Below are positions 1-38,932 of a DNA stretch of 38,932 nucleotides, piece by piece. Location: positions 1-38,932 of IMG/VR virus record IMGVR_UViG_3300033562_002159; one strand, given 5' to 3'. The translations under genes and the position numbers were made by a program. Each line of letters begins with the position of its first letter. Position 1 is the stretch's first letter. The notes below the pieces were generated by a model. The model saw only the letters and a list, made by a program, of their open reading frames with translations. It was not told where the DNA came from and did no database searches. The DNA is from a virus (taxonomy: Duplodnaviria > Caudoviricetes).

Positions 1-117
1 AAGCTACTCAATTTACTTTTATGTTTATGTATGCTGTAGTAGTTCAAGTAGGAGCAGTTGCAGTAGTTAGATTAGTTGCAAAATCTATTGCAGCTGAACT
101 TGTATTTCAAGAAACCA
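1..117. repeat. Terminal direct repeat copy 1 (circular assembly overlap)
   Basis: 1-117 is identical to 38816-38932. Confidence 0.97.
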
Positions 118-2716
118 TAGTTATTAAACTTCAAGTTGTTGTTACTCATTGTGTTAGAGTAAGAACAGAAACTGTATCTGTAAGAGTTCAAGCTGTTTGA
201 GTTGCTACATTTTCAAGTTTTAAGACACTTCATTGAGTTATAAAAGTTCATCAAATATTATTTACAATATTTTCTCTTCTTATATATGTAGAATTAAAAT
301 TTTGAGTAAGAGAATTTGCTGAATATTGCGAATGAATTCATCAAAAAACATTTAAATCTATAGTCCTTGAAGCATTATCTGTACTCCAAGAATGTATAAA
401 AGTTCAAGGCATTACTCAAGTTATTAATAATCAATGGTCTATTAATCTATCACCTCATTTAAAAATAGCATAAGCTCTTTTATTTGAAGAGCCTCACATT
501 CAATAAGGACTATTATTATTTGCTGGATTAAATCAAGTCCACATTCTTAAAGTATGTTGGTCGTAGTTTATTTTTATACCACAACCACTTTCTCAAGCAT
601 TATATGGAAGTCTATAATTAGTTATATCAATTGTTGGCACTTGAACTGCTGATGTTCAACTTCAAGTTATTTCTATTGCTTTTCAAGTTGATGTTGTGCT
701 TTGATTTATTTTTAATGCAACTAAAGAACTTGAAGCATTAAAAGCATTTATCAATAATCAAGTATGTCATTGTGCTGATGTTCAAGTATCTATCTTTTGC
801 ATTACTGTTGCTCAAGATTGTGTATTTGAGAGAGTGTAGTTTACTAATCAATATGTAGTTGTATTTATACTAGCACTACCATAAACTCAAAAAGCAGTTC
901 ATCAAACTCAAGATTGATTTATTAATAAACCTCATCAATTTGCTCAAGTTCAAGTATTTCAAGGAATATATGTTGTTTCTTGATTATCTATAAAAATTCC
1001 TCCATTAGTTCAACTTCAAGCATTATTTTTATTAAAAATAGCTAAATGTATATGATTGTTTGATGAACTAGTGTTAAAATTACTTCATATTAATATTCAA
1101 GCAGAAACTTGTTGAACTTTTTGTGTATTAGCAATATAATTATTTATATTAATTGCTCAATAAAATCAAGTAATTCTATCAGAATTAATATTTAAAGCTA
1201 TAGCACCTGTTGTTGATATTCAAGTATTATAATTAGCACAAATACTAGTATTTATTTGAGTATTTCAAATTATAGAACTAAATCAAATCGTTCAAGCACT
1301 TGCATTATCTCAAATAGTCGTAGTTGTTCAAGTTCAAGTAGTTCAAGTTATACTATCTCACCAAGCTAATCATCATCAAGCAAATAACACTCAATTTTGA
1401 TATAAATCTCAAGTAAAGTTTATATCTCAAGTTACATCTAATTTATATCAATTATTTGTAGTACTTCAAATAGAAACATTTCATCAAGAATGAAATCTAG
1501 TTGATAAAATTCAATTAGTATATAAGTCTAATGGAAGTGCATCAGTAGTTCAAAGTTTCATTATTTTTCAAGTTGATAACACTGCATTATCACTACCATC
1601 TAAAAGAAATGATAATCAAGAACTTCATCTATATATAGTCGCATAAGTTCAAGCAAAAGAGGCATCATAAATATCAAATAAATGAGTTGGTACAACAGTT
1701 CAAATTCAAACACTTCAAGCAGTTCAATTTGCTAAAATTTTCATTCTATCTCAAGCAGAAATTCTAAAATTTATACTACTTCAAAGTGCACTTGCATTTA
1801 TTTGTAAAACTCAAGAAGTTGTTTTTTCAAATCAAAATAAAGCAGACGGTGTAGTAAGTTTTACAACAGAACCTGAAAATGATTTTATTCAATCAATAGT
1901 TTCATCTCAAGTTGTATGGACTAATCAACTATTTGTATTTGCTGAATTATCTCAAGTATTAGTTCAAGAAGTATTTCATAAAACTATTTTTTGTTCTGGA
2001 GTTACAAAAACTCTTGTTAATGTCTCTGTTATTTGGTCGGCTGTATAATCTCACGATTGAGCTGTAATTATTCAAGTTCTTCAAAAAATTGATGAAACTA
2101 AATCTGTTGGAGTTAATAATTCTTTCCAAGAAGTAAGAATTGAATAAGTTCACGACAATATAAAAGTTTTATTTAAATCAATTCTTATTGCTACATCTCA
2201 AGTTTCTGCTGTTGAAAGTGCTAACATTTCAACTTCAGAAGTAACGATAAAAGTATCTGTTATTGCTAAGGCTGGTAATTGTAATGGATTAATTTTTCAA
2301 TTTAAATCTAATCAAACATATCAATTAATTTGATCTTTGTTTGCTATATTTTCAGCAGTATATCATAAAGCATTTTGTTTTGCATTCCATGTTGATTTTT
2401 CTGTATCTGTTACAAGTCTATGAGTAGAATCATCAGACAAAGAAGCAAGAGTTGTAGGGATTAATAAACTTGTTTCACTTTTTGAATAAACATTTAAATT
2501 TGTTCTTGCTATTTCATAATTTGATAATCATAAAAGATTTTCACTTTTAAACATATCTCAAACACTAATCCATTCAGTATCTAGATTAACATTACTTTTT
2601 TTAGCTAAAACTTGTCAAATTAATCATCAATCAATTAATCAAACTCAAGCTGGTCATTGTGTTTCAGTAGTTACATTGATAATATAATCATCAATAGTTA
2701 CATTTATATCACTCAT
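1..2716 (-). CDS. Long tail fibre / receptor-binding protein (~914 aa; continues across the circular junction to TAA at 38787)
   Basis: MSDINVTIDD...GGLIGQVLAKKSNVNLDTEW; GYVGLDLNGKINPLQLPALAITDTF; SIFGRTGIITAQSGDY; GSVGIGT fibre motifs; Gly/Thr/Ser-rich with TGA=Gly. Confidence 0.85.
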
Positions 2717-2720
2717 ATTT

Positions 2721-3044
2721 TTAAGTTATTTGATAAATAATAGTAAAAGCTCATCTTAGAAATGTTCTAACAAATCAAATAGAATCAATCCATTCAATAT
2801 CATAGTAATAAATTCAAGTATCAATTTTCATATCTTCACTTGTTATCATTATTGTAGCCACTCAATTAATAGTATCAGTTATTATTGCACTCCTTTGTAT
2901 AATAAAACTAACATCATTAATATTTTTTTTAACTGAAAAAGTAATAGTACTTCAAATCAAATTAACAGAATTTCAATTATTGTCTTTAAAATTTAAAGTT
3001 TGTTGAAATGTATCTCATTTTACATAAGTGTAATTATATTTCAT
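2721..3044 (-). CDS. BppU-like baseplate/fibre-adaptor protein (107 aa)
   Basis: MKYNYTYVKGDTFQQTLNFKDNNGNSVNLIGSTITFSVK...GIYYYDIEW...RTFLRGAFTI, typical of the BppU N-terminal family. Confidence 0.75.
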
Positions 3045-3077
3045 TTTTCTATAAATATATAAATAAAATTTAAGTTA

Positions 3078-4076
3078 TTATTGCTTAATTAATTGAACAA
3101 AATTTTCAAAAGCCTCTAATTCAAGTAAAGTTGTTTCTTGAGTATAATTAATTTTTGTAATTAGTAAGTTATAATTTAATACTTTATCAATATTTTTCAC
3201 ATTACAACTATTTCAAGGTATTATATTGTAAGCATTTTGATATTTTTCATTATTTATATTTAATTGAATCTTTTGTTTTGGATTTTTATTTTCAATAATA
3301 TAATTATTTCAAAAATCATTTGCAGTATTTAGATCTGCTATTTGACTATTTTTTATATATTTTTCTCTTCTTCAATAAATTGAAAGACTTGTTGTATCTG
3401 TATATATAGCTGTTCAAGTTTTATAAGTTAAAATTAAAAAATTTACTATATCTGTTGCATCTTCTTCAATATTCAATTCTATAATATCTTTTTGCAAAGT
3501 AAATATATGAGTTGCAATTGTTGGCTTTTCTTTAAATCTTAAAATATAATTATCTAAATACCAATAATAATTTTCTGATAAATCTTTAATATTATTTATT
3601 AAATCAAAACAATTATTAAAATCTAAAATATAGTTTCATATTATTCAAGTTAAAATTCAATCAATAGAAAAATAATTATAAAAAGTATTTACGAAATTTT
3701 TAATATCGTTTATAGTTGTATAAGTATCTTGATTTATATTAGCTGAATAATTTCATCCTACATAATAAATTATTCTTTTAAATAATGAAGCTAATCAATT
3801 GATTTTTAATTCTAATTCTTGAAAATCTGTAATTTTATTTATAATTTGCTCAATATATCAAACATAAATTAAGTTAGTTATTTTATTTTCAAAATTATAA
3901 ATCTCAACCAAATCTCATTGAATAAAATCATAATCAAATTTTAAATCTAATAAAAGAGAGAATTGTCATAATCCTCAATTTATTTGCTTTGTAAAAGATA
4001 TTTTATTTTTTACTATATCTAAATTTATGTTAGTTTTAGGAATATGTAATTTATTATAAATTTTAATTTGATACAT
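3078..4076 (-). CDS. Tail tip / baseplate hub-like protein (332 aa)
   Basis: Open in code 25; SFTKQINGGLGQFSLLL...QGDLVEI; lies in the tail module downstream of Dit. Confidence 0.6.
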
Positions 4077-4086
4077 TTTTATAAAT

Positions 4087-5307
4087 TTATGCAATAAGGT
4101 GTGCTACTACACTTAAATTACCAGTAGGACTTCAAGTTTTAGTCCAAGTTATAGAAAATTGTGTAGTTGAAACAAAGCTTACATATCCGAATTGTCAATT
4201 TCACGACTCATCACTTTTTAATCATAATGAATAAGAAGTTGTAGTAGTTGAAGTTGATCACATTAACACTGATTTATTTACATTAGTTTTTCAAGAAAAA
4301 CTTCATTCACTTCAATAACTAACATTTCATGCTCTAGCAGAAAAAATTATTTGTTTTGGTATTTTTCAAAGTCAGTGCGAATAAGTTACAACTCAAGAAC
4401 TTAATGAAGTATCACGAGTAAAAACAATTGTATCATTAACCATTAAATAATTATCTTTTGCTTGTTTAACTGTAATTGGAAGAGTTGTTGAAATTCAAGT
4501 AATTACTTCAGCATCTATTGGTAAATATACAACTCAAGCTTGAGAAGTAGTTGCAGGAATTGGTGAATAATTATCTTTTATTTGTTTTGGTGTCATTGCA
4601 ACTGTATCAATAATTCAAGCCGCAGCTTCAGCATCTGTTGAAACTCTTAAAACTCATTGAAGTGTTTTCGTTGCATATCATAATGCTTTTGTTATATTAC
4701 TTATCGTAACTTTTACATTATTTGTACCATTATATAAAATTGCAAAAAATCAACTCGTAGGAGTTCCCTCTTCTGTTAATCAATTTATACTTACTGTTGG
4801 AGTTTCAAAAGTAGGAGTTGCTGAAGCTCAATTTGATGTTAATACCTTTCAAAGATCTCATAAAGTTATTTCAGTCTCATTTTTACTTCAATTTGAAAAA
4901 AACATCTTCCAAGCATTTAGTAAACCTACTCTAAGTGCTCATTTATTTAACTTATCATTCTCTAATCTAGTTGACTCATCTTGAATATCTATTATAATTT
5001 TACTAGTAATATTTAAATAAAAATAATCACTAGTTAAAAAAGTTGTTGAAGTATCTCAATCATATCATCTAGTAATAGTTAATATATCTCAAGTTCTATT
5101 TGTAACTAAAACTTTCTCACTCTTAGCAACTCAAGAAGTTGGATTATTTGGTGTAATATATTGAACTAAAACTCAAATGAATTGCTGTGAAGTAGGAAAT
5201 AAACTTCATTGTCCTACTCATAAAGTTAAACTTGTTGTACTTGCTCAAATTCAGGCATCTATTTGTCAAACAGCATTATCTGTAACTCAAAATTTTTGAA
5301 AAACCAT
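4087..5307 (-). CDS. Tail fibre protein (406 aa)
   Basis: MVFQKFGVTDNAVGQIDAGIGASTTSLTLGVGQGSLFP...EKVLVTNRTGDILTITRGYDG; ATKTLQGVLRVSTDAEAAAG/ATTSQAGVV fibre repeats. Confidence 0.8.
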
Positions 5308-5308
5308 T

Positions 5309-6136
5309 TTATAGATAATTATTGAAATAAGATAAAGTTATGTTAAAATCAAAGATTCAATTTAAATTAATTGTATAGCTATTAATTCATACTTCTAATA
5401 TAGGAAATATTCATAAATAATCAACATTAATTCAATTTATTGTTACAATTTTCTCTTTGCAATCTATTTTTATATTATCTCAATTAATGAAGGTATAATT
5501 AATAGTAATTTCTCTTTCTCAAATACTAAAAACTAAAATATTTGTTCAAGAAATAGAATTTAGTAATATATTTATTTCTGGATTAGTTTTTACACTTCAT
5601 CTATTTGTAATCTCTTCTGTAATTCAAGAAGTTAATCAAACAAAAGATTGATTTTGTTTAGTTAATTCAGTTAAAAATCAAGAAACTAATCTAAATTTAA
5701 TATTAAAATCTAACCAAGTAATATTATAGTGTTGTCTATTGAAAAGTGAATCAATATTTATACAACTAGCTTTTGCTCTTCTAATTGTTCAATTTACTTT
5801 AATGTCAATATTTTTATTATTTTGTCATAATATTTTCTTTAATTCATCAATTTTATTATTTAAATCCTCAGCATTATTCATTTTTATAACTCATGTTAAT
5901 GATATCACTTTTTCTTTAAAAAAATAATTTAACTCTCATCATAAATCATTTAATGGATTAGAATAAATTTCACTACTTATAAAGTGTCAATTATCAAAAT
6001 CAACAACACTTGTAATAATATTTGAATTTTGTAATCAATATTCATTGTAAGTAATATCATCTTGTATAATTATAAATACATTACTTGTAGCTATATAATT
6101 AAATGGCTTAGTATTAAACAGAAATGAATTAAACAT
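5309..6136 (-). CDS. Distal tail protein (Dit-like, 275 aa)
   Basis: Directly after the tape measure gene; EKVISLTGVI...LNNKIDELKKIL pattern and Dit-like C-terminus (FPILEVGINSY). Confidence 0.7.
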
Positions 6137-6141
6137 ATTTT

Positions 6142-8511
6142 TTAACTTATTCAAATATTATAAAGCTTAACTTCGTTTATTAGTGTTTTTTTCAATTTTT
6201 CTATTAATCTATTTTCATCTGCTTCTTTTTGAATAACAACTCAACCTAGATTAATATTTATTGTATTTCATCAATTAATTTTATTATTTGGTGTGATATT
6301 TCAACTACTAATAGGTGTAAATATTTCTGGTCACTTTTCTCAAACAAGATAAGAATTTCATCAATTAACTGGTCATCAAGTTGCTCTAGCTCAAGAAATT
6401 CAAGTAGTCATCTCGTTAGGTCAAGCTGTTAATGTATTTATTTTTTTCAATTTTTCTATCAATCATTCAACACTTATTGTTTGTTTTATAATTCTAGCTT
6501 CAAATAAATTAAAGTAATTATTATCTAAATCTTGTTTTGATTGAATTAAATTCTTATAAGTTATTAATTCCGACTGAATTATTAATTCTTTTTCTTTCAT
6601 TAATCAAACAATCAACTCTTTTTCTTGTTCAATGGATATTTTTTTAAAATTTAGAGTTTTTTGTATTTCTTGTCTTTCAATTTCTGCCTCACTTAGTTTT
6701 TGATTTATTCTATCAATAATTACTTGTGTTTCATTTTTTGCATTTTCTATTCTTTGTTGTTCAATAGCCTCATTTCAAGCATAAGCTTCTGCAAGTTTTA
6801 ATTCTTCTTGCAAAGCTATGATTTTTGCTTGATTTTCTTCTGTTGATTGTTCTTTTTTTAAATCTCATAATTGTCATTCAAGCTCTAAAGCTCTTTCAGC
6901 AACACTAAGTTTTCACTCTCAAGTAATGTTTTTAATTTTTTGTTCTTGTGAAATTAATTGATCTTCAATTTTTTTTAAATCTTTAACTCACTCACTTCAA
7001 ATTTCTTTTAGTTTATTTTTTAATTCACTATATCAATCTCTCAAAGAATATAACTTATCTTTTTGAGTATCAACAACATCATTTAAACTTCAATAAGTAT
7101 CTTTTATACTAGATTGAAGTGTATTTAAATAATCTTTTATACTAGAGAGTCAAGGTCAAGTTCATAATTGATTATATATTGCACTTGCTAATTTTGCACT
7201 CGCTTTATCAATATCAGTATATCATTTACTTAGTCAATCTGTCATCATTTTTATTAAATTTGGCATCCGTTTATCACTATCGCTATTTGGTCATTTTTTA
7301 GTTGGAGAACCAAATCATAAATAATCTTTTATTGATTGAGCTATTTCAATAATTTTTCATTCAACAATCTTAATTCACTCACTTAATCACTCAACAAACA
7401 TATTTAACAAATTACTTCACCACTGTTTAGCATCTTGTATCAAATCTAAAATCCATTTTCATATTATCTCACTAATTTCTAAAAACTTAGTTTCAGTAGT
7501 TTGTTTTAATTCTTGCCAATATTGAGGTATTTTCGTTATAAATATTTGTGTTTGTGCTACTATATATCACAATGCTGATCATAAATTATAATAAGACTCT
7601 ACTAAAAATCATATTACTTTTATTACTCACAATAAAGCAGTTGAAACAATATTAACAAAAACTTGTATATCTTTTTTATTAGTTTCAATTAATATTTGCA
7701 ATTCTCAAATTCATTTACTTACTTTATCAAAAAAACCTCATTCAATTATTTCTCAACTTTTACTAACTCAAATAACTGATAAAAGTATTTGATTAAAAGT
7801 ATCTTTTAATGTTGAAAGTCTTCAATTTAAGGTTTTTGATTGCTTCTCCATTCATCCTACAATTCATTCCATTCATCACAATTCTTGTAAATATCATCAA
7901 ATTGCCTCTTTTGTTTTATGAACCTCAACAGTTTGTCATTTAAAAGTTAATTTTACTTTGTCTCAATTTTGTTCAGCTCTTATTCAAAATTCTTTTAATC
8001 TTTCAAACTCTCAAACAATAGCATCATTATAAGCTTCAACTGTTTGCGAAATTCACTTTCATTGACTTGAAGCTAAATCTCAAAGAGCTGTAAGTGTTGG
8101 AATTAATTCTTGATCTGTAACTCAAGCAATTTGCTTTAACTTTAATGTTACATCAGCTAATTCTGGGAACTCAAAAGGTGTTTTTGCTGCAAAATCACTT
8201 ATTTGATTAAGTATTTCATTTGCCTTTTCAGCACCTCAATATAAATTTTGAAATGCTATGTTTGTTTGTTCAATGTCTCATGCCATTTTTATTGCATAAA
8301 ATCATAATCAAGCCAAAGCACCTCAAACTAAAGTTCATGTAGTTTTTAAAGTATTCATACTTTCAGAAGACATTATAGCTTCTTTATTAAATCAAGTAAA
8401 TCACTTTTGTATATCTCAAAACTTACTACTTATCGTTTTTTCAATATCTTTAATCGGTTTTGTAGCTTTATCGATTGCTTCAATTATAAATTGAACTTTA
8501 TTGTCAGCCAT
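6142..8511 (-). CDS. Tape measure protein (789 aa)
   Basis: MADNKVQFIIEAIDKATKP...; ISDFAAKTPFEFPEL; GEFERLKEFGIRA; GGMEKQSKTLNGRLSTLKD; C-terminal ARATGGPVNGGNSYLVGEKGPEIFTP. Confidence 0.93.
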
Positions 8512-8512
8512 A

Positions 8513-8743
8513 TTATCTCTTGTTAATTTTTAAAGTTTTTTGAAGTGCTGATCTTTTTTGTATAATCAATATACAATCATTATAAAAATCTTTTGAGGTA
8601 TTTAATATATCTTTTTCAGTCCACCCAAATTGCTCACACAACATTATATCATAATATCGCTCAATATATTTCTTATTTTCATCATTTATAACAATATTTT
8701 TATTACTTAAAATTAAATCAAATATTTGATTTTTTTTTATAAT
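8513..8743 (-). CDS. Tail assembly chaperone, C-terminal (gpT-like) part reached by -1 frameshift from the upstream gene
   Basis: Open frame that starts at the A9 run in the -1 phase; YYDIMLCEQFGWTEKDIL motif; lies immediately before the tape measure gene. Confidence 0.7.
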   Translation of the reverse strand: MIKKNQIFDLILSNKNIVINDENKKYIERYYDIMLCEQFGWTEKDILNTSKDFYNDCILIIQKRSALQKTLKINKR

Positions 8744-9015
8744 TTTTTTTTATCTTTTGACTTTATTTGATTTAATAATGGATTCATTACTTCTAATATT
8801 TTTTCTATTAAATTAAGCAATAAATCAACACTAAGTTTATTTATTTTTTCTTCTATATTTGAATCTATTGCAAAAGCTTTAATAAATCCAATTCATAATT
8901 CAATATGATCTACTTCTTTTTTCAAAAGAGGTGTAAGTTTTCTAAGATGTCAAATTGTTAAAATATCATCTACATCAAGTTCTATTTTTAAATCTCAAAT
9001 CTCTATAATTTTCAT
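8737..9015 (-). CDS. Tail assembly chaperone gpG-like (92 aa)
   Basis: Between tail tube and tape measure genes; ends GAT AAA AAA AAA TTA TAA (slippery A9). Confidence 0.75.
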
Positions 9016-9039
9016 AATGTTTTAAATTAATTAATAAAA

Positions 9040-10275
9040 TTAAGCTGTATATACTGTTCAAGCTTGATTATTTAAAATTGTCATTTGTAAAGTTCTTCAA
9101 TCAGTATTATCATAAAAACAAGTTCATTCAACATTTACTGCATATAAATCATCTGTTCAAGTTGGCATTAATGCTGAAGTAATTCTTAAATCTGAAATCT
9201 CAAGCTTAATTGTATATTTAAAATTATTTGTGTCATTTATTCAAATAACTTCATTATTACTAATGGTAAGAATACAAGCTTGCTTCTCCATTGCTAAATA
9301 TTTATCTCTTTCTTCTATATTTTCAAAATATTTAGTAAATGTTAGTTTAGCTATATATCATTTTGGAGCTATAACTGATGGACTTGCTCTTAATGACCCA
9401 AATCTTTCTTCAAGTTGATTTTCGTAACTAAAATCCCAATTTTCAATATTTTCTTCAGTAGTTAATGCTGCAGTTATTAAATTGCTTCAAAATTGAAAAT
9501 TACAATTCACAAAACTAAATGGCTTACAAACTCAATAACTTGGTATTTGAGGCACTAATTCAACCTTTGCTTTATTAGTTACTAAATAACTAGCTCATAA
9601 AGTTGCTATTTGTATTGTTTTTGCTGAAGTAGTGATTGTAGTAATGGCATCAGTTTCATTCTTAGGTGTATTATCAAAGATATTTACTGTATCACTAATA
9701 GTTAATCACTCAACAGTTTCAAGAGAAATATCTACATTTGATCAAGATGTAACATCTCAAATCAACAAACTTCTTTGAAATACTCAATGAGCCTTCATTG
9801 CAACCTCCATATTAATTATTCAATCACTTCAAGAAAGAGTTAATGTATCAACCATAGTTCAAAAAGATCTATCAACTTGGTAATTTTGTAAATTATTAGT
9901 AGTGTCTGAAAGATTTCACTTTCATTGTTCTAAAGTAAAGCTAGGAAGTGAATTTGCAACACTTAATACATGTTTATATACTTGACTTGCAGTACTTCAC
10001 ACATCTGTTGTTACTATATTTCACAATGCTCAATATAATAAATATAGTGACTCAATAGCATCCAAATCAAAATTATAAGTTCATTCTGTTGTTATTTGTC
10101 ATTCAACTGGACAAATAGCATTAGCTCTATTATTCATTATTGGATTGTTTTCAATAATTGTTTTATTAACTTCAATATCTCAATCTTTAAATTTTAAAAA
10201 ATGAGTAGGTTTTTCTGCAACGGATGTAATAGCTTCTTTTTTTAGAGCTAAATACGAAAGTCTTGAACTTGACAT
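9040..10275 (-). CDS. Major tail tube protein (411 aa)
   Basis: MSSSRLSYLALKKEA...VYKHVLSVANSLPSFTLEQ; position upstream of chaperone and tape measure; no sheath gene seen. Confidence 0.8.
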
Positions 10276-10299
10276 AATATTTAAAATAATAAAATAAAA

Positions 10300-10482
10300 T
10301 TATTTAGACTTTTTAAAAGTCTTTTTTGAAGAAATTTCATCTTCTTCTACAAATTCTTTAAAATTTGGATTTTTTAACAATAAAACTCAAATAGAATTAT
10401 CAACTTCTCTTATTTCTTTCTTTCAAAAAGAAGGTATTCAAGTCACACACTGAATTTCATTACTAATATTTTCAATTAACAT
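10300..10482 (-). CDS. Small hypothetical virion-module protein (60 aa)
   Basis: MLIENISNEIQCVTGIPSFGKKEIREVD...LLKNPNF; fills the gap between tail completion and tube genes. Confidence 0.65.
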
Positions 10483-10503
10483 AAAAATAAATTAAAAAAT
10501 AAA

Positions 10504-11001
10504 TTATCTATTTCAAACCACATTAACACTTAATAAGATTATTACTTCGTAAGTAGGGAATAATCTAGTATTAAATAAATTATAATTTACACTTAAAATC
10601 TTAGCTAATTGACAAGTATTGTTTCAATTATATGGAAGTTGAAAATTTTTCTCAATTATACCACAAATAGAATTATCAACTGTTTCAAAATTAAATGTAT
10701 TTTCAATTTTTTTAATACTATCTTGAATTATAGCAACTTTTTCAATTTCTGGATTTTCACTAAAAAAAGATTTTGCATTATGTATAAGTTTTATTTCAAT
10801 TGAGTGATTTTTTTGGTCATATCTTGAACCTCTTTGAATATATTCACTATTGGTAGGATTTATAACTAATGCAGGCAAACTAGATTGAGGTATATTTATT
10901 GGATCTCAATAATAAACATTTTTAATATCACTTAAATTAGATTCAGTTAAAAGAATTGCTTTTTTCAATAATTGTTGAATTGCTAATATGACCAAATCCA
11001 T
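10504..11001 (-). CDS. Putative tail terminator/completion protein (165 aa)
   Basis: IKNVYYGDPINIPQSSLPALVINP motif; extends ORF-track 10624..10878 through TGA codons; neck-tail position. Confidence 0.65.
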
Positions 11002-11032
11002 ATAAATAAAATAAATAAGTAAAATTTTTATA

Positions 11033-11061
11033 ATAATAATAAAAAAAAAAAAAAAAACAAC
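11033..11061 (-). promoter_or_regulatory. Putative promoter G-TTGTTT-N16-TATTAT whose spacer is a T17 run
   Basis: Same GTTG/16-bp spacer/TAnnnT geometry as the other promoters; upstream of the tail genes. Confidence 0.45.
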
Positions 11062-11079
11062 TATAATTATAATTGTTTT
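11041..11079 (-). terminator. Rho-independent terminator
   Basis: AAAACAATTAT-AATT-ATAGTTGTTTT hairpin running into a T17 tract at the end of the gpG-like gene. Confidence 0.6.
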
Positions 11080-11549
11080 CCAAAAATTTTGATATCGTTA
11101 TTTATTTTCATTTGAAGAGTTTTTATTATTTTATCATTTACTTTATTTGATAAATCAATAATTGCTCTTTTCGGTAAATTTAATCATCAATTTTGATGGT
11201 ATATTGCATAAGGTGCATTATATATCAAAACTCAATTTTTATTTGTTGCTTCTTTAGTTATATTTTCTTGTAAATTTCAAGTCCATCTTAAAATTCAAGG
11301 ATTATTTGGTGTTTTTTTATAATATCACCACCTTTTTATTCTAGCTTTTTCAACTCTTGGTGTTAACTTTCTCCATTTAGGATTTTTTTCTACATTACTT
11401 CATTCTTTTTCAAATACCTCATCAGTTCTTTCTTTAATAATATCTAATGATTTTTCAAAAAAAGGTTTTAGGTTTTTTAAATTAATAGCTACTAGTCTGA
11501 GATTTCTTGATAATTGTATTTGTCAATTAACTTCAAATTTAATCTGCAT
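11067..11549 (-). CDS. Mu gpG-like virion morphogenesis / neck protein (160 aa)
   Basis: PKWRKLT...ILRWTGNLQ...NAPYAIYHQNGGLNLPKRAII, the signature of this family. Confidence 0.85.
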
Positions 11550-14757: not shown

Positions 14758-14784
14758 TTTTTAATAATTAATAAATAAAATAAA

Positions 14785-15501: not shown

Positions 15502-15527
15502 TTTTTAATAATTAATAAAATAAGATA

Positions 15528-16964: not shown

Positions 16965-16991
16965 AAAAAATAATTAATAATAATTAATTTA

Positions 16992-17020: not shown

Positions 17021-17021
17021 T

Positions 17022-27636: not shown

Positions 27637-28180
27637 TAAAAATACTGTTTTCTATTTGATTTCAAAATACATCCCATCATTCAGTTGAATTTCTTGCAAA
27701 AAGTTCTAATTTATTTCAATTACACATTTTTTCAATATTGCTTCTAATAATATCAGGTTTTTTAGAATGTCACTCCCTATCAGCAATTATAACATTACTA
27801 ATATTTTTATTCAATATTTTAGGCTTTCACTTTACACCAATCAAACAAGCTTCTACATTACTTCTAGTATAAGATCATATACCAAAACATATTTTTTTAC
27901 TCTTTGGATAAGTTTTTACCCAATTAAATCAAATAGTTTTATACTTAAATCACCAACTCTCAATTACCTCAATTCATTCTTTAATTAGAGGGAATGTAAT
28001 CCATATAAATAAAATACAATCATTGTTGCAAATTTTATTAACATCTAGATTTTTTATATCATTTAATGTCATTGATTTATAATACTTCGCTGTCTCTCAA
28101 CTATTATTTTCAATATAATTAGCTCTTTTTGAATTATAACTCCGAGGTGGATCTGCATAAATTACATCATATTTCTTCAT
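27617..28180 (-). CDS. MT-A70 family adenine N6-methyltransferase (187 aa)
   Basis: KYDVIYADPP[CGG]SY; LFIWITFP; SWGFKYKT; GSYTRSNVE; HSKKP; LELFAR...GWDVFGNQ. Confidence 0.93.
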
Positions 28181-28421: not shown

Positions 28422-29111
28422 TTATTTTCATTTTCAATTTCAAAACCACAACAAATGAGATCTTGTACAATATCTATAATTTTTCAATAAGCAATATTGA
28501 ATCAAATAATGATTTATTTGAGATTTTATATCAATTCACAAAGGCATTAAATAAATTAACATATCTTTAATTTGCTCTTTATATTTTTTTAGAAATTGTT
28601 CCATTTCTTTGATATCTTTTAAATTTCAAATAACAAATTTTAAATCTTTATTTCAAGTCCATCAAATAGAATTAAATATTTGCATATCATATTCTTTATT
28701 TCAACTCATTCAAAGTTTAGGACTTATATTTGTTTGTAATAAATTTATTCATCTTGTTAATTCTTTACTTCAATTAGTCTCTAATTCATAACTATAGTAA
28801 TCGCAATCTACTACTAAAGAAAGTAATTTATCTTGAATGGCTATAATTTGTTCTTGAAATAAGGTTGGCTCTCATCAAGTGAAAATTATATGCTTACAAG
28901 GATATGATTGTATTTTCTTAATAATTTCCTCTAAGTGCATCATTTGAGCTTTTTCTATTAAAGGATCCCAACTATATTTTGAATCACAGAAATCACATTT
29001 TAAATTACATCACCAAAATCTTATAAATATTGACGACTTTCAAACATTTCTTCACTCTCATTGAAGAGAGTAAAAAATCTCACTTATTGGAATTAAAATT
29101 TTATCTTGCAT
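28422..29111 (-). CDS. queE: 7-carboxy-7-deazaguanine synthase (radical SAM, 229 aa)
   Basis: EIFYSLQGEG...FIRFWGCNLKCDFCDSKYSW; IIFTGGEP; IETNGS; NISPK. Confidence 0.95.
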
Positions 29112-29135
29112 ATTTTTTTATTAAAATTAAAATAA

Positions 29136-29169
29136 TATTTTCAATTAAGAAAAAACTTAATTGAAAATA
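29136..29169. other. Perfect inverted repeat at the 5' end of the queE transcript
   Basis: TATTTTCAATTAAG-AAAAAA-CTTAATTGAAAATA just downstream of a promoter copy. Confidence 0.6.
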
Positions 29170-29207
29170 ATATACTCCTATTTTTTTTTAGACAACTTCT
29201 TTATCTA
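29168..29207 (-). promoter_or_regulatory. Repeated promoter copy (TAGATAAAGAAG-TTGTCT...TATATT)
   Basis: Variant of the repeat upstream of queE; spacer 15 or 17 depending on the -10 chosen. Confidence 0.7.
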
Positions 29208-29215
29208 CTTTTCCC

Positions 29216-29485
29216 TTAAAATCAAAATATAAATTTAGATAATGTTTTTTTTTGTGATAACTCTAAACAATTATCAAATATCTCTTGAATAGTTTCAGAG
29301 GTGGATTCACCTTGATATCTCCGATTAAAATAATCTCTACACTCTTCATTAAATTTTCAAAATGTTTTATATTGTTTTTGATAATTTTCTATTTTAGAAT
29401 ATTTATCTAATTGTTTTTAAGTTTTCAATTTATACAATTGTTTTCTTAATTGTATAAAACTATAATAAACTCACTCTCAATACAT
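29216..29485 (-). pseudogene. Hypothetical 89-codon ORF interrupted by one in-frame TAA (29417-29419)
   Basis: ATG at 29485; the frame continues with protein-like composition for 66 codons after the TAA. Confidence 0.4.
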
Positions 29486-29510
29486 AATATAAAATTATTA
29501 TAATAAACAC

Positions 29511-30227
29511 TTAATCTCTTTTCTTACAATGGTACCAAAATTCATTTCTTGTTGCTTCACTATGTAAAAATAAACCTCACATCAATGCAGTAGCTGTACT
29601 ACTACACGGTTCCTCAACTCATCTAACTTTCATACAATTATGAATACAATCAATTGAAATTGCTATATTTTCAGTTTGTAATTTATTTTTAAGAAATTCA
29701 AATATTTCTTGAATTAAAAATTCTTGAGTTTGGGGTTTTCTTGAAAAAAAATCTACAATTCTACTAAATTTTGACAATCAAATTATTTTTTTTCCTGGAA
29801 TGTATGCAATTTGACAATATCAATCAAAGTTTTGAAAATGATGAGCACACATACTGTGTACTTCAATATCTTTAACAACAACCATTCAATTATAATTATT
29901 CTTATTGTCAAAGTCTGTTATTTTAAGATCTCAAATATCATTAAATAATGATGAGCAAGTTTCATTTATATACATTCTAGCTACTCTGTCAGGAGTACCT
30001 ACAAAATTATCATCATTAAGATCTAGTCATAAAGCTAACATAAAATCTTTAAAAGTTCTTTCAATTTCTGCTTTTTTATTCATTTTATTTTTATTAAAAA
30101 TTAAATTTGCTTTGTAATTAATATATAATTTTCAAGCTTGTGATGAGTTTTCAAAATCATAACTATGTACTTCGTTTTGTTCTCATTGAGTTTTTGTACA
30201 ACTTTTATCTTTTTTTAAATTAAACAT
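29511..30227 (-). CDS. folE: GTP cyclohydrolase I (238 aa; alternative start at 30083 gives 190 aa)
   Basis: [54 protein letters not shown]. Confidence 0.95.
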
Positions 30228-30244
30228 ATTTAAATAATTAATAA

Positions 30245-30700
30245 TTAACAATATGGATTATATGTAGCTGAACTTGTTGGAGTTTCCCACACCTTAAGAT
30301 AAATAAGTTTTATATCATATTCATCATTAAGAGGTTTTTTAATCATTTCAAACCAGAATTTTGCCAAATTTTCTGCAGTAGGAATAAAATTCACAAAATG
30401 CATTTTGGCTGCATCTTGATCTTCAAAACTTAAAAGTAAATTAAGTATGTTTACATATTTATCATCTTTATAAAAAACAGCTCAATGATCAAAAAATTTA
30501 TCAATATAATTTATCATTATTTTTTTTAAGTCTGAATAATCTACAACCATTCAAGTGTTTGCTACTCAAGATTTTTGAATAACTTCTCATTCAACTCAAG
30601 CTTCAATCACATATCTATGTCAATGTAAATTTCTACATTTACTTTCGTGATTTGGTATTCTGTGAGCCATATCAATTTCTATTTGCTTTGTAATTAACAT
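30245..30700 (-). CDS. queD: 6-carboxy-5,6,7,8-tetrahydropterin synthase (151 aa)
   Basis: MAHRIPNHESKCRNLHGHRY; GMVVDYSDLK; FDH; PTAENLA; VWETPTSSA. Confidence 0.95.
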
Positions 30701-30710: not shown

Positions 30711-31028
30711 TTAAGAATTATTTATATGTAAATTATCTAATCTACAATTTTTTTTATTTCAATCTTTATATTTAACAAAATTGGAAGCTTTTCATACAAA
30801 AGTTTCGTATACTAATTTTGCTACATCGAAGTGTGTACAACTTCAATCATGCCGTTGAATTTGAGAATATCAATACTTAGAAAAATCTAATTTTTTAATT
30901 TTTTCTTTAATTTTTCTAAAGTTATTATTACCTACATGTACTAATCTTGAAAGACTTTTAATCTCTCAAAAATTACTAATTTCATAACAATCCTCAAATC
31001 ACTCAATAACCTTCCATTCTTTTTTCAT
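30711..31028 (-). CDS. NUMOD4 domain protein with a degenerate HNH motif (105 aa)
   Basis: EWKVIEGFEDCYEISNFGEIKSLSR; KLVYETFVG...VKYKDGNKKNCRLDNL (catalytic His absent). Confidence 0.82.
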
Positions 31029-31193: not shown

Positions 31194-31714
31194 AGTTTTA
31201 AAATTAGATTATAAAATTTAAAACTTCATATTTTAATTTCCTCAATAATATTTTTTTCTAAACATTTTTCAAGAAATTCTTTTCAAAATTTTGAAATAAA
31301 TTGATCTCTACGAATAGGTTTTTTTCTTTCTTTTAGAAATTTTACCATATCATTAAATTCATTTTTTACTTCTTTTTCATTAATCACTTCATCATTTTTT
31401 ACTTCTTTTTTCTTAGTTATTTTTTTATCTTTTCTTGATTTAATAACTTTTTCAACTATTTTTTTATCTTTTCTCATTTGATCTTCTACATCATTTTCAT
31501 TTACATTACTTTCAAATATTTGAATATTTGAAAGTTTCATAATTTTCGATTCAAATAACCGATGTGGATTATGATTTTTCCGAAGTGTAACCCTTCTTTT
31601 TCAATTAAGAGTTAACCACTTCAATTCTTTCTCTTTGTTATTATGATTAGAAATTACTACTCTTTTTTCATCATTATATTTATAATGAATGAATTCTTTT
31701 ATATTGTGTAACAT
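31184..31714 (-). CDS. Hypothetical protein (176 aa), possibly DNA-binding
   Basis: Extends ORF-track 31283..31540 both ways through TGA; NGKRRVTL[CGG]KN segment resembles NUMOD4/HNH-associated beta hairpins. Confidence 0.6.
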
Positions 31715-32072: not shown

Positions 32073-32468
32073 TTAATTTTTCTCATAAAATTCAATAATA
32101 TTTATTGCATCTAGTGCTCAATAAGCAATTTCAGCACCTACATTATTTATTTCTTCTAATTTTTTAATCCATTCCCTTTGTTCTTTTGAAACAATACTAA
32201 CACTTGTTCATAATTCTCAATTTTTTAATCTTTTTTTCTTTCTCTTTAATTCTAAAAATAATAAACTTCATCTTTTTAAAATAATCATAAAATCTGGTAC
32301 TCAAGAAGACATTCACATATCTTTTTTCTTTTTCATCATTTTTATAATATTATAAGTTCATTTTTGTCCACTCTCATTTGCAATATGAGAAAATTTATAC
32401 TTTTTTAATCTTAGCCACTCAGCTAATGTTATAGCTTCTTCATCTTCAAGAGGTATTATGTTATTCAT
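32073..32468 (-). CDS. VRR-NUC / PD-(D/E)xK nuclease (131 aa)
   Basis: FSHIANES...KKDMGMSSGVPDFMI...LFLELKR...VSKEQREWIKKL. Confidence 0.9.
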
Positions 32469-32835
32469 AATTTAATCAAGTTTTATAGGTTTCAATTTCA
32501 TACTTTAATTGATTTATAGTTAAATCTTTTCTTGTTGTTATTCAATATCTTTTATAAATAACTAATTTTTCATTCTCGTATTCACCTCAAATTTTTTCTA
32601 CATATTTTCTTATAAAAAAATCTAAATCTTGAAGTAATTTATTTCTATTTTCATCGTCTCAACATCAAATATCCTCAAATACTAAAGCTCATAAACTTCA
32701 ATCTCTATTTAATTGAAATAATTTTTGCTCTAATTCATTAGAATAATCTTCCTTTTTTACAATAAAGGTAATTTTCAATTCTTCAAATTTATTTTTTGAA
32801 ATATTTTGTATTTTTGTCTCTTTAATAATTAACAT
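32461..32835 (-). CDS. Hypothetical protein (124 aa)
   Basis: Open in code 25; C-terminal KRYGITTRKDLTINQL. Confidence 0.6.
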
Positions 32836-32839
32836 AATT

Positions 32840-33292
32840 TTATTTTTTATAATTTAAAATATTAATCTTTTCTCAATTTAAAATCCTTTTCTCAATTTCT
32901 CTCTTGTTTCAAGTTACATATTTATCAACTAATCAATGTTCTTTTAATCATTTAACAATACATATATTATTTTTAAATAGTCGCAAATATGCAAATTGAT
33001 TTTTATTTAATATGTGAGCAAAGCACCAAACTTTAACATCATTGATACTAAATTTATCTCAAGATATTTCACAAGTTAAATTTCAATCCTCATCTTGATT
33101 TTCAATTAAAATAGAATTAAACATTGCTTTTTCACCTCATCAAGAGTTTATTTTTTCTTGTTTTTTTCTTGAAACTAATTTTATTTTTTTTGTTAGTTTT
33201 TTATAAACATTTTCCTCAAAGTAACAAATTGAACAATAAGGTATTAATGGATTTTTATTTAAAACTCAACACTTTTTACAATATTTTGCCAT
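32840..33292 (-). CDS. NinG-like / HNH-family nuclease with N-terminal CxxC zinc ribbon (150 aa)
   Basis: CKKCG...CSIC; CEISG...FAHILNKNQFAYLRLFKNNI...EH...D. Confidence 0.65.
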
Positions 33293-33295
33293 TTT

Positions 33296-33760
33296 TTAAT
33301 TTTTAATTTCTAAAATCTTATTTTTAATTTCAATTTTTTTTAACTTTTCTAATTTTTCAATAGTTGTTTCTAAATTAAATTTTTTTTCTTCAAAAGCTAA
33401 TTTCTTTAAAATTTCATCTCTTTTTAGTATAAAATTTTTTTTAATATTTGGATAAATTTTTTTTAATATTTGTTGATTTCTTTTTCTACTTTCCTCTCTC
33501 TCTTCTTCTGTATATAATTTCTTAAGTTCTTTAGGTGTAGGTAAAGATAAATAAAGAGTTTTTCATTTTTCTTTTTTTATTTGAGAAAAATATAAATTGC
33601 AATCATAATTAAGTAAATATACTTTCTTCTTTCAATCTTTTGTTAATTTTTCAACCATATCATTCCATTGTTGAAGAGTTTTATTATTTAGAATATATTC
33701 CTCATTATCGAAGGTTGTAACAATAACAATATTTTTAACTAAGTCACTGCTGTTACTCAT
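33296..33760 (-). CDS. Hypothetical protein (154 aa) downstream of the replication initiator
   Basis: Open ORF overlapping the initiator stop; charged helical C-terminus. Confidence 0.6.
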
Positions 33761-34548
33761 GTATATAAATTATTAATATAATGTTTCTTTGCTGGATCAA
33801 TTAAAACAATAAAATAAGGAATTCATTCTCTATTCTTAGATCTCAATTTATCAATTGTTTGAATTTGATCTAACCAATAAAAATTTTTTCAAGGATTATT
33901 TATTTTTGAATCACAAGTAATAAAAGAAATAATAAAAGTAATTTCTTTTTCAGAAAATCCATCAATTCTTTTTAATTTGTTAACCGAATTAGCAAATATT
34001 TGTATAATTTCTTTTTCGTTTTTTGATTTTAATTTATATAAAATAGAAGGAGTTTTATTATTAATGTGAGCATTAAAAAAAATTTTAGCCTCTATGTATT
34101 CAAAACCTTCTTGAAAATATAATAAATCATTTACTTGAGGATATAATGCCTTCTTTATTATTATTTCTTTATTTGTAATTCTATCTTTATTAGTTTGCGG
34201 ATTTTCCGTCACCGGATTTTCCGTCACCGGATTTTCCGTCACCGGATTTTCCGTTATGGTATTAATTGATTCACTATATAAAATATATTCAACATCCCAT
34301 TGTCATTTATTATTTTTAAATCTTTTTCTTATTAAATATCAAAGATTTTCAAGTTCTGCTAATCAACTCGAAATTCAATCTTTTCAATCTTTTCAATCTT
34401 GACATATTCTATTTACTGCAAAATCCCAATTATCGGGCTTACTTTGAATATATCAAAATAATCATTTAGCTTTAAATGTTAAATCTTTATTATTTAATAC
34501 ATTATTTGGAGTTATACCAAATCTGTCAATTATAGTTAATTTACTCAT
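33739..34548 (-). CDS. Phage replication initiator (N-terminal winged HTH, internal iterons; 269 aa)
   Basis: PNNVLNNKDLTFKAKGLFGYIQSKPDNWDF...DGKDGISSGLAELENLGYLIR; internal TENPV repeats. Confidence 0.88.
34198..34254. repeat. Four 15-bp-period iterons (CGGATTTTCCGT-CAC), probable replication origin
   Basis: Exact tandem GC-rich, internally palindromic repeats inside the initiator gene, next to an AT-rich tract. Confidence 0.85.
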
Positions 34549-34587
34549 TTTATTAAAATAGAAAATAAAATTATATAAAAATATAAC

Positions 34588-34842
34588 CTATCATGTATTT
34601 TTTTCTAATTCATTTTCTCTTTGATTTTTTAATAAAATATCAAAAGTTTTTTCCGAAATTCACAAAGCTCAACAAATCTTCAAAATAGTCCTCTTTTGAG
34701 GCTTATTTTTATTTTTATTATTTATTACTCTATAATATGTATTTACATTAATTATTTTATTCATTCCTTTAGGTAAACTTATTCATCTCAATTGTCTCAA
34801 CTTATCAAAAGTCAAAGTTTCAATTTTTATTTTTTTATCCAT
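34588..34842 (-). CDS. XRE/Cro-like HTH transcription regulator (84 aa)
   Basis: FDKLRQLRGIS...INVNTYYRVINN...PQKRTILKICGALGIS. Confidence 0.75.
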
Positions 34843-34873
34843 TTTATTTTATTATAAATATAAAACTTAATTA

Positions 34874-36001
34874 TTATTTTTTAGTAGGTTTTTTAGTAGG
34901 TTTTTTCTTTTGTACATCTTTTACCTCTTTTTCTTTTACCTCTTTTTCTAGTGAGTGTTCTTCATTAATACACTCCTTTTTTAATTCTAAAACCTTTTTA
35001 TCATTCTTAAGTTTTAATATTTTTTCATCTAATTTCTCTAAAAACAATAAGCCTTGCTCTTTGTTTGCTTCTGTTATAGTATTTGTATTTATTATATTCT
35101 TCCAAGTAGCAGCCCTTATTATTTCATTTTTTTCTTTTGTATATCTTATATTTCATTTAGAATCTAATTCATTTGGATATAATTCTATTGATAAATTCCA
35201 CATTGTATTCCAAGCAGTAATTATATTTTTAATTTGTTTAGCGGTAATTTTTTCAATATTTACATTTGGTAAATCTTTTTTAATTCAATCATCTGTATAT
35301 TTAAAATCATTAACTATTTCATTTTTAGATAATTTTAAATTTTCAATATATCATTGAAAAATTGAGAAATTAGGCTCAATATCAATAGGGAATTGATTAA
35401 ATCTATCTTTAGTTAAATATTTTTGACTTCATTTAGTTAAGATATAATGTTCTCAAGTTTTATTAATTCACATAAAACAAACTAAATCCATATATGCAGC
35501 GATATCTCTTGCTGTTTGACCATTTAACATCGGAACTATCTTATCAATTTTATCCTCATCTTTACTTTCTTTTGCTAAAGCGGTAAAAATAATATGTTTA
35601 TCGAGGTTTCTGAATTTTCTTAAAATAGCTTTAATTTCGTCTTGAATTTTTCACCAATCTCTTCAATCAAGATCTCTTCATCATTTTTTAAATTTAATAT
35701 CATCTTTAATTATTTCATTAATTTCTGTAATTGAATCAATAATAATAGTATCAATTTTAAATCAACTTTTTTCATTTTCATTATTTTCAACATAAATTAA
35801 AGCATCTTTTAAATCTTTAATAGACTCGATTTTTATACCAATAGGATTAGTATGCATAACTGAGGCTAATCCTCACTCTGCACTTAACCAAAAAGGATTA
35901 GATGCTGTTGAGCCAAACACTGTTTTTCATGAACCACTCTCTCCATATACAAGACATTTTATTTTATGATCTTGTATATTAAATCTTTCAACTTTCGTCA
36001 T
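34874..36001 (-). CDS. AAA_24 / Sak4-like ATPase (recombination/annealing; 375 aa)
   Basis: Walker A LVYGESGSGKT (last Gly is TGA); Walker B IIIDSITE; RDWGKIQ; HIIFTA; IAAYMDLV. Confidence 0.88.
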
Positions 36002-36065
36002 AATTTTAAACAATTAAACAAATAAACTTACATTTATAATAACACATTATGTATTATTATAAATA

Positions 36066-37596: not shown

Positions 37597-37605
37597 ATAT
37601 TATTT

Positions 37606-37896: not shown

Positions 37897-37918
37897 AATA
37901 ATAAAATTAAAAAATAAA

Positions 37919-38194
37919 TTATTTTTTTAATAAAATATTTATAACTTGATCTATCTTTATATTATTTTTATCTATTTCCTCTTTAAGGTCACTTTTCATT
38001 ACATATAAATACTTTTGTAATGCTTCGTATTTTTCTTCTAAATTGATTATTTTGTTTCTATTTTCTAGTATTTTAGACTCTGCTCAAAAAACTAAACTTC
38101 ATCACTGAAATCATAATACTAATAAAAAAACAATAACACTAACCATTATTCACACACTAACTGACACAGAGTATTTTTCAATAGATTCTCCCAT
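37919..38194 (-). CDS. Single-TM plus coiled-coil protein, holin/XhlA-like candidate (91 aa)
   Basis: VSVGIMVSVIVFLLVLGFQGG TM helix followed by a coiled coil; located after the fibre genes. Confidence 0.5.
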
Positions 38195-38216
38195 TTTCTT
38201 TATATTAAAATAATAA

Positions 38217-38696
38217 TTATTCTTGTATAATTAAGTCAAAGTGAATCAAGACATCCATCAAGTCTTGATTTATTTCATCTGGAATATTATCCATTTTTAT
38301 TTTTTCTAATTCAATTTTAGATTTTTCATTTAAAAATTGATTATAAACTTTTAAAACTTCTTTGAATTCAGTTATTTCTTTTTCGAATTCTAAATTTAAT
38401 TTACTTAATTCTTTTTGAAATTTATCTTCGTTTAAAATGTCGTAATTTGATATACCTTCAATTATCTTGTAAATAAAATTTCATTTTTCATCTTTTTTAC
38501 AATATTTTTCACATATTTTTCATCTTTTTTCATCATATTCTTTATATTTATCTGATTTTACTAAAGTTTCTTCAATAATCTTTAATTCATTTATTAAAAT
38601 ATTTTTATTTTTTCAAATAAAATACTTAAAAAAAGAATTTCAAACATTAGATTTATTGATTATTAAAAAAATTTTTTGTAGGTTTCAATTATTCAT
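38217..38696 (-). CDS. DUF1617-like protein following the tail fibre (159 aa)
   Basis: FKYFIGKNKNIL...YDEKRGKICEKYCKKDEKGNF...KIELEKIKMDNIPDEI pattern. Confidence 0.6.
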
Positions 38697-38766
38697 AATT
38701 ATAATTATTAATATATAAAATATACTACTATAAGTAATATTGTAGTAGTACTATTTGGACTACATT

Positions 38767-38795
38767 AGTATATTTAATTTTTAGATTTATACAAC
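38767..38795 (-). promoter_or_regulatory. Putative promoter G-TTGTAT-N16-TATACT for the post-fibre/lysis block
   Basis: Overlaps the fibre stop codon; followed by a TACTAC..GTAGTA inverted repeat at 38723-38750. Confidence 0.55.
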
Positions 38796-38932
38796 TGATT
38801 TTGCTTCAATTCTATAAGCTACTCAATTTACTTTTATGTTTATGTATGCTGTAGTAGTTCAAGTAGGAGCAGTTGCAGTAGTTAGATTAGTTGCAAAATC
38901 TATTGCAGCTGAACTTGTATTTCAAGAAACCA
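38787..38932 (-). CDS. C-terminal end of the long tail fibre (continuation of 1..2716)
   Basis: ...TAYINIKVNGVAYRIEAKSVV*; in frame across the junction. Confidence 0.85.
38816..38932. repeat. Terminal direct repeat copy 2 (circular assembly overlap)
   Basis: Identical to 1-117. Confidence 0.97.

Follow-up and report, generated by a model that had tools for sequence, protein, structure and literature searches.

Phages that read UGA as glycine (translation table 25, or code 25) have been reported from Gracilibacteria and Absconditabacteria. By spacer matches, Liu et al. 2023 (PMC10746230) linked 57 phages to the former and 50 to the latter, and they recorded 27 prophages, although only 4 of 38 Gracilibacteria phages longer than 20 kb were clearly recoded. 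We analyzed IMG/VR virus record IMGVR_UViG_3300033562_002159 over its whole length of 38,932 nt (the window; 22.9% GC, or 0.229), which a reading made from the letters alone (the sequence-only reading) had described as a complete phage recoded under table 25, from a Gracilibacteria or Absconditabacteria host. That reading regarded phages of these lineages as scarcely described, which overstates their rarity given the counts above but holds for clearly recoded ones. We consider it probable that the window is a complete tailed phage of low-GC Gracilibacteria (order BD1-5, the provisional "clade 1") in which TGA means glycine, CGG tryptophan, and CGA arginine, with host tRNAs doing the decoding.

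Shulgina and Eddy (PMC8629427) described the host codes that bear on this comparison. Under the provisional code of "Gracilibacteria clade 1" (low-GC, BD1-5), UGA is glycine, CGA is arginine, and CGG is tryptophan, whereas in Absconditabacteria UGA is glycine and both CGA and CGG are tryptophan; the change of CGG in low-GC Gracilibacteria was left "pending additional evidence." These lineages lack release factor 2 (RF2) and use a tRNA-Gly(UCA) (PMC8629427, PMC13695967). The window resembles the clade 1 code in its reading of all three codons, in GC content (about 0.23), and in AGA-dominated arginine usage; it differs in being a phage rather than a cell, and tRNA evidence is unobtainable from a phage. 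With the Absconditabacteria code it shares UGA = Gly and CGG = Trp, but its CGA codons fall on arginine. The code-25 phages of Liu et al. and of Borges et al. (bioRxiv 2021.08.26.457843) resemble it in TGA = Gly throughout the genome, an almost empty annotation when read under code 11, and probable host-supplied decoding, and its size is similar to that of complete candidate phyla radiation (CPR) phages of 36–55 kb (PMC11310336). It differs from the code-25 phages in that its host is assigned from codons and the single-stranded DNA-binding protein (SSB) rather than from spacers, and in its likely second, sense-codon change, CGG = Trp. Phages with TGA = Gly being already known, what this genome adds is independent backing for a host code that is still provisional: CGG at the tryptophan of the DPPW motif and at two further conserved tryptophans, together with CGA at arginine, provides support from outside cellular genomes, in a phage under purifying selection whose CGG and CGA sites name testable peptides.

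Reading of TGA, CGG, and CGA

We picked a set of 53 genes from the list of table-25 open reading frames (ORFs); these genes make 92% of the window coding. Coverage of the window by ORFs of at least 60 aa rises from 14% under table 11 to 86% once TGA is taken as sense, against 27% for TAG; readings with TAG or TAA as sense were rejected. Within the 53 genes, 692 TGA codons stand beside 109 GGN codons, so that TGA makes up 86% (692/801) of the glycine-type codons. The closed genes (n = 52) end in TAA in 49 cases and in TAG in 3; these endings are partly by construction because the genes were called under table 25.

To score TGA columns, we replaced each TGA by X and aligned the genes to 119 MT-A70 proteins and to 214 loci that we had classified as free of recoding. 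Across seven genes, TGA columns with a consensus of at least 60% were glycine in 42 of 46 cases and tryptophan in none; at a consensus of at least 80%, glycine accounted for 26 of 28. As controls, TGG fell on tryptophan in 18/22 columns and AGA on arginine in 30/34. Four TGA columns in the MT-A70 methyltransferase were glycine in all 119 homologs. Table 25 also gave higher Pfam scores than table 4 in all five genes compared: MT-A70 (105.7 vs 76.5 bits), terminase (39.3 vs 17.8), FolE (175.4 vs 152.3), capsid (230 vs 192.2), and AAA_24 (115 vs 93.9). TGA accounts for 88% of glycine codons in the late/structural genes (n = 27) and for 83% in the early/middle genes (n = 26). At the level of sequence comparison, these results establish that TGA is read as glycine genome-wide.

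The sequence-only reading had rested UGA = Gly on seven motifs, and TGA does encode glycine in all of them: TerL FGGARGGGKS (2 of 5 glycines), AAA GESGSGKT (1 of 3), QueE SLQGEG and TGGEP (2 of 2 in each), QueD LHGH, capsid WLG, and exonuclease ETTG. Its further statements, that early and late genes are recoded alike and that every gene ends in TAA or TAG, agree with the counts above, as does the coding-density comparison that it proposed as a check, and the tryptophan columns it had named as the contrary outcome did not appear.

Arginine in the 53 genes is written mainly as AGA (296 codons), with 16 AGG and 11 CGN (2 CGA, 6 CGG, 3 CGT, and no CGC). Three of the six CGG codons could be scored; they lie in three unrelated genes, and all three fall on tryptophan columns (Table 1), whereas AGA fell on a tryptophan-consensus column in 0 of 34 cases. 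Reading CGG as tryptophan raised the Pfam score of the MT-A70 protein from 105.7 to 112.3 bits (+6.6). At tape measure codon 415, most rows without tryptophan are also without the SPT..P...DKWMPN motif, and tryptophan is present in two homologs of normal tryptophan content (P0129 and P0139). At head protease codon 56, the multiple alignment contributes one further row, R, to the pairwise relatives. Both CGA codons fall on arginine. Based on these columns, CGG is likely to encode tryptophan in the phage, beside TGA = Gly.

Under plain table 25, a Gracilibacteria host would read CGG as arginine, and the three CGG codons would be true Trp-to-Arg substitutions or assembly errors. Such an account, which we hold to be improbable, gains from there being three sites only, known from assembled sequence alone, from TGG to CGG being one transition, and from seven related recoded loci (L096 among them) that have CGG at arginine columns or CGA-rich arginine usage. 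It would, however, require three independent losses of conserved tryptophan, one of them at a DPPW residue that is W in 118/119 homologs, and in the window CGG falls on no arginine column and AGA on no tryptophan column. In the protein collection, two contigs carry this MT-A70 residue (P0001), although their independence is uncertain. The table-25 assignment of the sequence-only reading therefore stands for UGA = Gly, but plain table 25 is likely incorrect given CGG at tryptophan columns.

Host assignment

Eight low-GC BD1-5 species (rows 11–18 of the Fig. 4 source data in PMC8629427) have GC contents of 0.21–0.29 and AGA-dominated arginine. In these species, CGA is called Arg in five and "?" in three, and CGG is called Trp in two and "?" in six; six of the eight have a tRNA(CCG), and none has an annotated tRNA(UCG). 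The GC content of the phage (0.229) and its 296 AGA vs 11 CGN codons match the profile of these species. CGG occurs at 5 per 10,000 codons in the phage (all genes) vs 0.5–3.1 in the hosts (Pfam-aligned codons only; PMC8629427).

Among the 119 SSB homologs listed, all 13 that carry an organism name belong to Candidatus Gracilibacteria, and two of these, HOT-871 and 28_42_T64, are among the eight low-GC BD1-5 species; the NCBI Gracilibacteria label also takes in some table-11 genomes (PMC13695967). In the SSB tree, the phage SSB and the 13 Gracilibacteria SSBs form one group (Shimodaira–Hasegawa-like approximate likelihood-ratio test [SH-aLRT] 98) that excludes both the sampled Patescibacteria SSBs and those of six related recoded phages. 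This placement suggests that the phage SSB was captured from a BD1-5 host. CGG at tryptophan, CGA at arginine, the SSB affinity, and the GC and codon profile thus make low-GC Gracilibacteria (BD1-5) the likely host, against Absconditabacteria. The sequence-only reading had left both lineages open and had proposed SSB best matches as a check; the evidence favors the Gracilibacteria half of its host proposal and speaks against the Absconditabacteria half.

That the host is instead an Absconditabacterales (SR1) cell, with CGA and CGG both read as tryptophan, seems to us less credible still than plain table 25. CGG = Trp belongs to that code (PMC8629427), and four related loci (L152, L168, L170, and L177) have CGA at tryptophan, L177 being the portal sister of the window (SH-aLRT 91–92). 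In the window, however, both CGA codons in called genes are on arginine, one of them invariant; CGA occurs at 1.7 per 10,000 codons and GC content is 0.23, vs 13–37 and 0.29–0.38, respectively, in ten Absconditabacterales (PMC8629427); and the named SSB matches are all Gracilibacteria.

Several points weigh against a low-GC Gracilibacteria host and the code proposed with it. CGG = Trp is based on three codons, the other three CGG having no informative homologs, and CGA = Arg on two, one of which has only one homolog. TGA = W translations are frequent among the tape-measure homologs, and the clean witnesses at codon 415 are only the low-Trp P0129 and P0139. L096, whose gene order comes nearest to that of the window, places its CGG codons on arginine columns and lies in a metagenome-assembled genome (MAG) labelled Marinimicrobia. 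None of the eight BD1-5 genomes has an annotated tRNA(UCG) to account for its CGA codons, and their rows are "clade 1" on our reading of the figure legend, the table itself carrying no label. The Gracilibacteria rows of the SSB tree were chosen by similarity to the query, and the tree is without labelled Absconditabacterales or high-GC BD1-5 rows. A scan of genome contigs with the portal alignment for prophages returned 17 loci, and no record labelled Gracilibacteria or SR1 contained any of them. The ~400 sampled Patescibacteria genomes (overlapping sets of 251 and 401) included no code-25 cell genome, none of them having stop-interrupted or BD1-5-like SSB or L2 matches; this blank reflects sampling and not absence. 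The host link is indirect, from codons and the SSB rather than from a CRISPR spacer or prophage.

With a low-GC Gracilibacteria host, UGA would be decoded by the host tRNA-Gly(UCA) in a cell without RF2, and CGG by a host tRNA(CCG) predicted to bear tryptophan; the phage itself would need no code switch. Under AT pressure, GGN may have drifted to TGA, with G-to-T change at the first codon position, until TGA reached 86% of glycine, and the rare TGG codons may have drifted to CGG, by then synonymous. As TGA occurs in 53/53 genes, a standard-code cell presumably could not translate this genome.

Related phages and their codes

In the portal scans, an in-frame TGA was found in the portal of 16 of the 20 best-scoring loci (some duplicates) and in none of the lower-scoring loci. 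A tally of shared genes placed TGA on glycine in 14 of 15 relatives; in the same tally, CGA falls on arginine in L013, L044, L096, L153, L154, L155, L157, and L164, and CGG falls on arginine where scored (L096, L154, L155, L157, and L164). Four relatives (L152, L168, L170, and L177) have CGA on tryptophan, L168 also having CGG on tryptophan, and on these columns they carry an Absconditabacteria-type code; in L011 and L014, CGA and CGG were not scored. L150 ends its genes in TGA, as in code 11, at 62–63% GC (also L012 and L151); its portal is 52% identical to that of the window and is placed among recoded relatives. L160 has no TGA in conserved columns, its recoded label having come from density alone. 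No tRNA was found in the 17 relative loci checked.

By sequence, one portal family thus holds four codes: code 11, plain code 25, TGA = Gly with CGG = Trp as in the window, and TGA = Gly with CGA and CGG = Trp. Such a spread fits a code imposed by the host. On the portal tree, the approximately unbiased test rejected neither monophyly of the four loci with CGA = Trp (p-AU 0.23) nor that of the 13 rows recoded at TGA (p-AU 0.55), and repeated code switching or interleaving of codes is not statistically established. The family node had a support of 98 in the first portal tree and none in the 22-row tree (both quick trees).

A recoded phage of a standard-code bacterium that switches code in the course of infection, a model put forward for Lak and crAss-like phages, appears very unlikely. 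A code-11 phage (L150) does stand among the close portal relatives, and L096 sits in the Marinimicrobia-labelled MAG, whose four SSB matches are free of stops. The L096 contig, however, reads TGA as glycine and has only phage-like ORFs without a host flank, which fits mis-binning, and we consider it most likely that L096 was mis-binned in that MAG. In the window we found no tRNA gene (ARAGORN, Rfam) and no release factor or synthetase (Pfam, PHROGs); TGA extends to the earliest genes, and late genes are not specially enriched (88% vs 83%). In Borges et al. (bioRxiv 2021.08.26.457843), recoded genes make up ~90% in phages whose hosts use code 25 vs 26–71% in code-switchers. The sequence-only reading had seen no suppressor tRNA and had argued that the host itself must use the code; uniform recoding and the lack of a phage tRNA support that argument for a code-25-type UGA = Gly.

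The least credible alternative, TGA = Trp (table 4), under which public protein records of this genome are stored (P0001), draws on the W at TGA columns of many SSB and tape-measure homologs, but it is refuted by the TGA columns against non-recoded references (Gly 42/46, Trp 0) and by the fall of all five Pfam scores tested. Their 5–9% Trp and low Gly mark those homologs as recoded DNA that a pipeline translated with TGA = W, and P0001 is this genome's own MT-A70 protein in that form. By these signatures, a sizeable family of code-25 phages has been deposited mistranslated under TGA = W. Plain table 25 would also mistranslate phages of this kind, and the public table-4 records are worse. Among public proteins, most of the highest-ranking tape-measure homologs (P0122–P0149 and others) have a Trp content of 5–9%.

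We advance a broader picture only tentatively, with rather more doubt than confidence: a Mu-head siphovirus family present in four codes may have crossed code barriers between hosts, and this genome may represent an intermediate stage of Arg-to-Trp change (CGG first, CGA still Arg), so that codon content would place an uncultured host at sub-order level; in addition, the window would be a case of 7-deazaguanine replacing guanine in the DNA of a CPR phage. A literature search, with subscription papers mostly outside it, found no report of a CGG = Trp phage or of a dpd cluster in a CPR phage.

Genome organization and DNA-modification genes

The ends of the window are a 117-nt direct repeat; the genome is therefore a 38,815-bp circle, and the last tail gene continues in frame over the join. 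Based on this repeat and on Pfam and PHROGs matches (Table 1), the genome is a complete siphovirus-like tailed phage, as the sequence-only reading had held with regard to completeness, and, clearly recoded phages of this lineage being few, it offers a host-linking target. One sequencing run was listed as containing the genome (X1, labelled "microbial mat metagenome"), which may be its source; no RNA run was among those listed. None of the 53 proteins matched a tail sheath family (Pfam, PHROGs). MuA/MuB transposase and integrase families gave no match above threshold in the same databases, with one sub-cutoff match to Phage_int_SAM_6 (E 0.006); by gene content, the genome is Mu-like in its head genes only and is not a transposable Mu-like phage. 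Further genes matched in Pfam and PHROGs encode an exonuclease, the SSB, a dUTPase/dCTP deaminase-like protein, and the MT-A70 methyltransferase. The best-ranked terminase match among 50,697 GenBank phages has 38% identity; therefore, there is no close isolate among those phages.

Table 1. Positions of the features discussed, in window coordinates.
Feature	Coordinates	Strand	Evidence or remark
Whole phage genome	1..38932	-	53/53 called genes on minus strand, at least 1 in-frame TGA each
Terminal direct repeat, 117 nt, copy 1	1..117	no strand	assembly overlap of 38,815-bp circle
Terminal direct repeat, copy 2	38816..38932	no strand	direct repeat
Tail module, whole (includes neck and fibre-like genes)	2..11549	-	Pfam/PHROGs
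Tail: Dit	5309-6154	-	Pfam/PHROGs
Tail: tape measure	6142-8511	-	Pfam/PHROGs
CGG, tape measure codon 415	7267..7269	-	Trp in 24/39 aligned rows
Tail: likely chaperone	8737-9015	-	Pfam/PHROGs
Tail: tube	9040-10275	-	Pfam/PHROGs
Mu-like head module, whole	13846..20286	-	Pfam/PHROGs
Head: gpT capsid	13846-14757	-	Pfam/PHROGs
Head: structural protein	14785-15501	-	Pfam/PHROGs
Head: protease	15528-16964	-	Pfam/PHROGs
CGG, head protease codon 56	16797..16799	-	pairwise relatives: Trp 4/5, Tyr 1/5
Head: Mu-F	17022-18875	-	Pfam/PHROGs
Head: portal	18832-20286	-	Pfam/PHROGs
Large terminase, 26 TGA	20307..21707	-	Pfam/PHROGs
Small terminase (GP3_package)	21717..22277	-	Pfam/PHROGs
SSB, host-like	23637..24068	-	13/13 organism-named matches Candidatus Gracilibacteria
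CGA, DGTK(R)Y motif of SSB	23790..23792	-	Arg in 119/119 homologs
DpdA-like DNA guanine transglycosylase	25377..26171	-	tblastn E 2e-9 to vB_FspM_immuto_2-6A (annotated as such)
DpdL-like, LxxxHRHxF signature	27168..27524	-	motif; tblastn matches to phiST and ACP17
CGG, DPP(W) motif of MT-A70 methyltransferase (27617-28180)	28142..28144	-	Trp in 118/119 homologs
QueD, FolE, QueE span (GTP to 7-carboxy-7-deazaguanine route)	28422..30700	-	Pfam/PHROGs
QueE	28422-29111	-	Pfam/PHROGs
FolE	29511-30251	-	Pfam/PHROGs
QueD	30245-30700	-	Pfam/PHROGs
CGG in NUMOD4/HNH gene (30711-31028)	30852..30854	-	no informative homologs
Two CGG (31580-31582, 31559-31561) in ORF 31184-31714	31559..31582	-	ORF without homolog found
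Replication/recombination genes, whole region, including helix-turn-helix (HTH)	32073..36013	-	Pfam/PHROGs
VRR-NUC	32073-32468	-	Pfam/PHROGs
CGA in ORF 32840-33292	32981..32983	-	Arg in sole homolog found (L014, 30% identity)
Replication initiator	33739-34548	-	Pfam/PHROGs
Sak4-like AAA	34874-36013	-	Pfam/PHROGs

A cluster on the minus strand (25377–30700) holds the QueD, FolE, QueE, and DpdL-like genes, a DUF1599 gene (26482–27165), and the DpdA-like gene, with the MT-A70 methyltransferase gene interrupting it. According to Cui et al. 2023 (PMC10516641), FolE, QueD, QueE, DpdL, and DpdA without QueC lead to 7-deazaguanine (dDG), with a proposed activity for DpdL itself. No QueC family match was found among the 53 proteins (Pfam, PHROGs), and by analogy the gene set predicts dDG in the phage DNA; dCDG or dADG is a possible alternative. 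The base would be made from GTP by FolE, QueD, QueE, and DpdL and swapped into DNA by the DpdA transglycosylase, where it would shield the phage from restriction.

The DpdA-like gene also matches Campylobacter phages, and we infer from these matches that it is of DpdA3 type. It had no match in Pfam, NCBIfam, or PDB and no relative among the viral contigs, and its single-sequence structural model (predicted local distance difference test [pLDDT] 34) was unusable. The window resembles Cellulophaga phage phiST in having FolE, QueD, QueE, a DpdL with LxxxHRHxF, and a DpdA, with QueC not found (PMC10516641); it differs in that its DpdA-like gene matched Flavobacterium phage immuto_2-6A and Campylobacter phages rather than phiST, and in that its modification is predicted from its genes. 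The CGA = Trp relative L168 also has QueD-, FolE-, QueE-, and DpdL-like genes.

Four-base palindromes are rarer than expected over the whole window, both strands counted: ACGT (0 vs 19 expected), CATG (46 vs 138), GATC (106 vs 183), and GTAC (62 vs 104). This depletion suggests restriction avoidance.

A repeat of ~45–70 nt occurs in six copies on the minus strand (near 23595, 27636, 29207, 32066, 36107, and 36423), upstream of early/middle genes; each has TTGTCT or TTGACT and then a TAAGAT-like hexamer 16 nt on. The copies are likely sigma70-type phage promoters by their hexamers, although the copy tested scored under the threshold of a consensus promoter scan. Inside the replication initiator gene (34183–34257), four to five tandem 15-nt repeats encode TENPV repeats, which by their arrangement are possible origin iterons.

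At 8512–8760 on the minus strand, the gene upstream of the tape measure terminates in an A-rich run, and an alternative frame is open for ~70 codons up to the tape measure gene and contains one further CGA. We take this pattern to resemble the programmed frameshift of tail assembly chaperones. A candidate lysis region on the minus strand (36450–38194), with no named family matches, contains a 192-aa ORF, a Cys/His-rich 96-aa ORF, and a membrane ORF with one helix; the 192-aa ORF has a Gln...Cys pattern that is presumably like that of papain-like peptidases.

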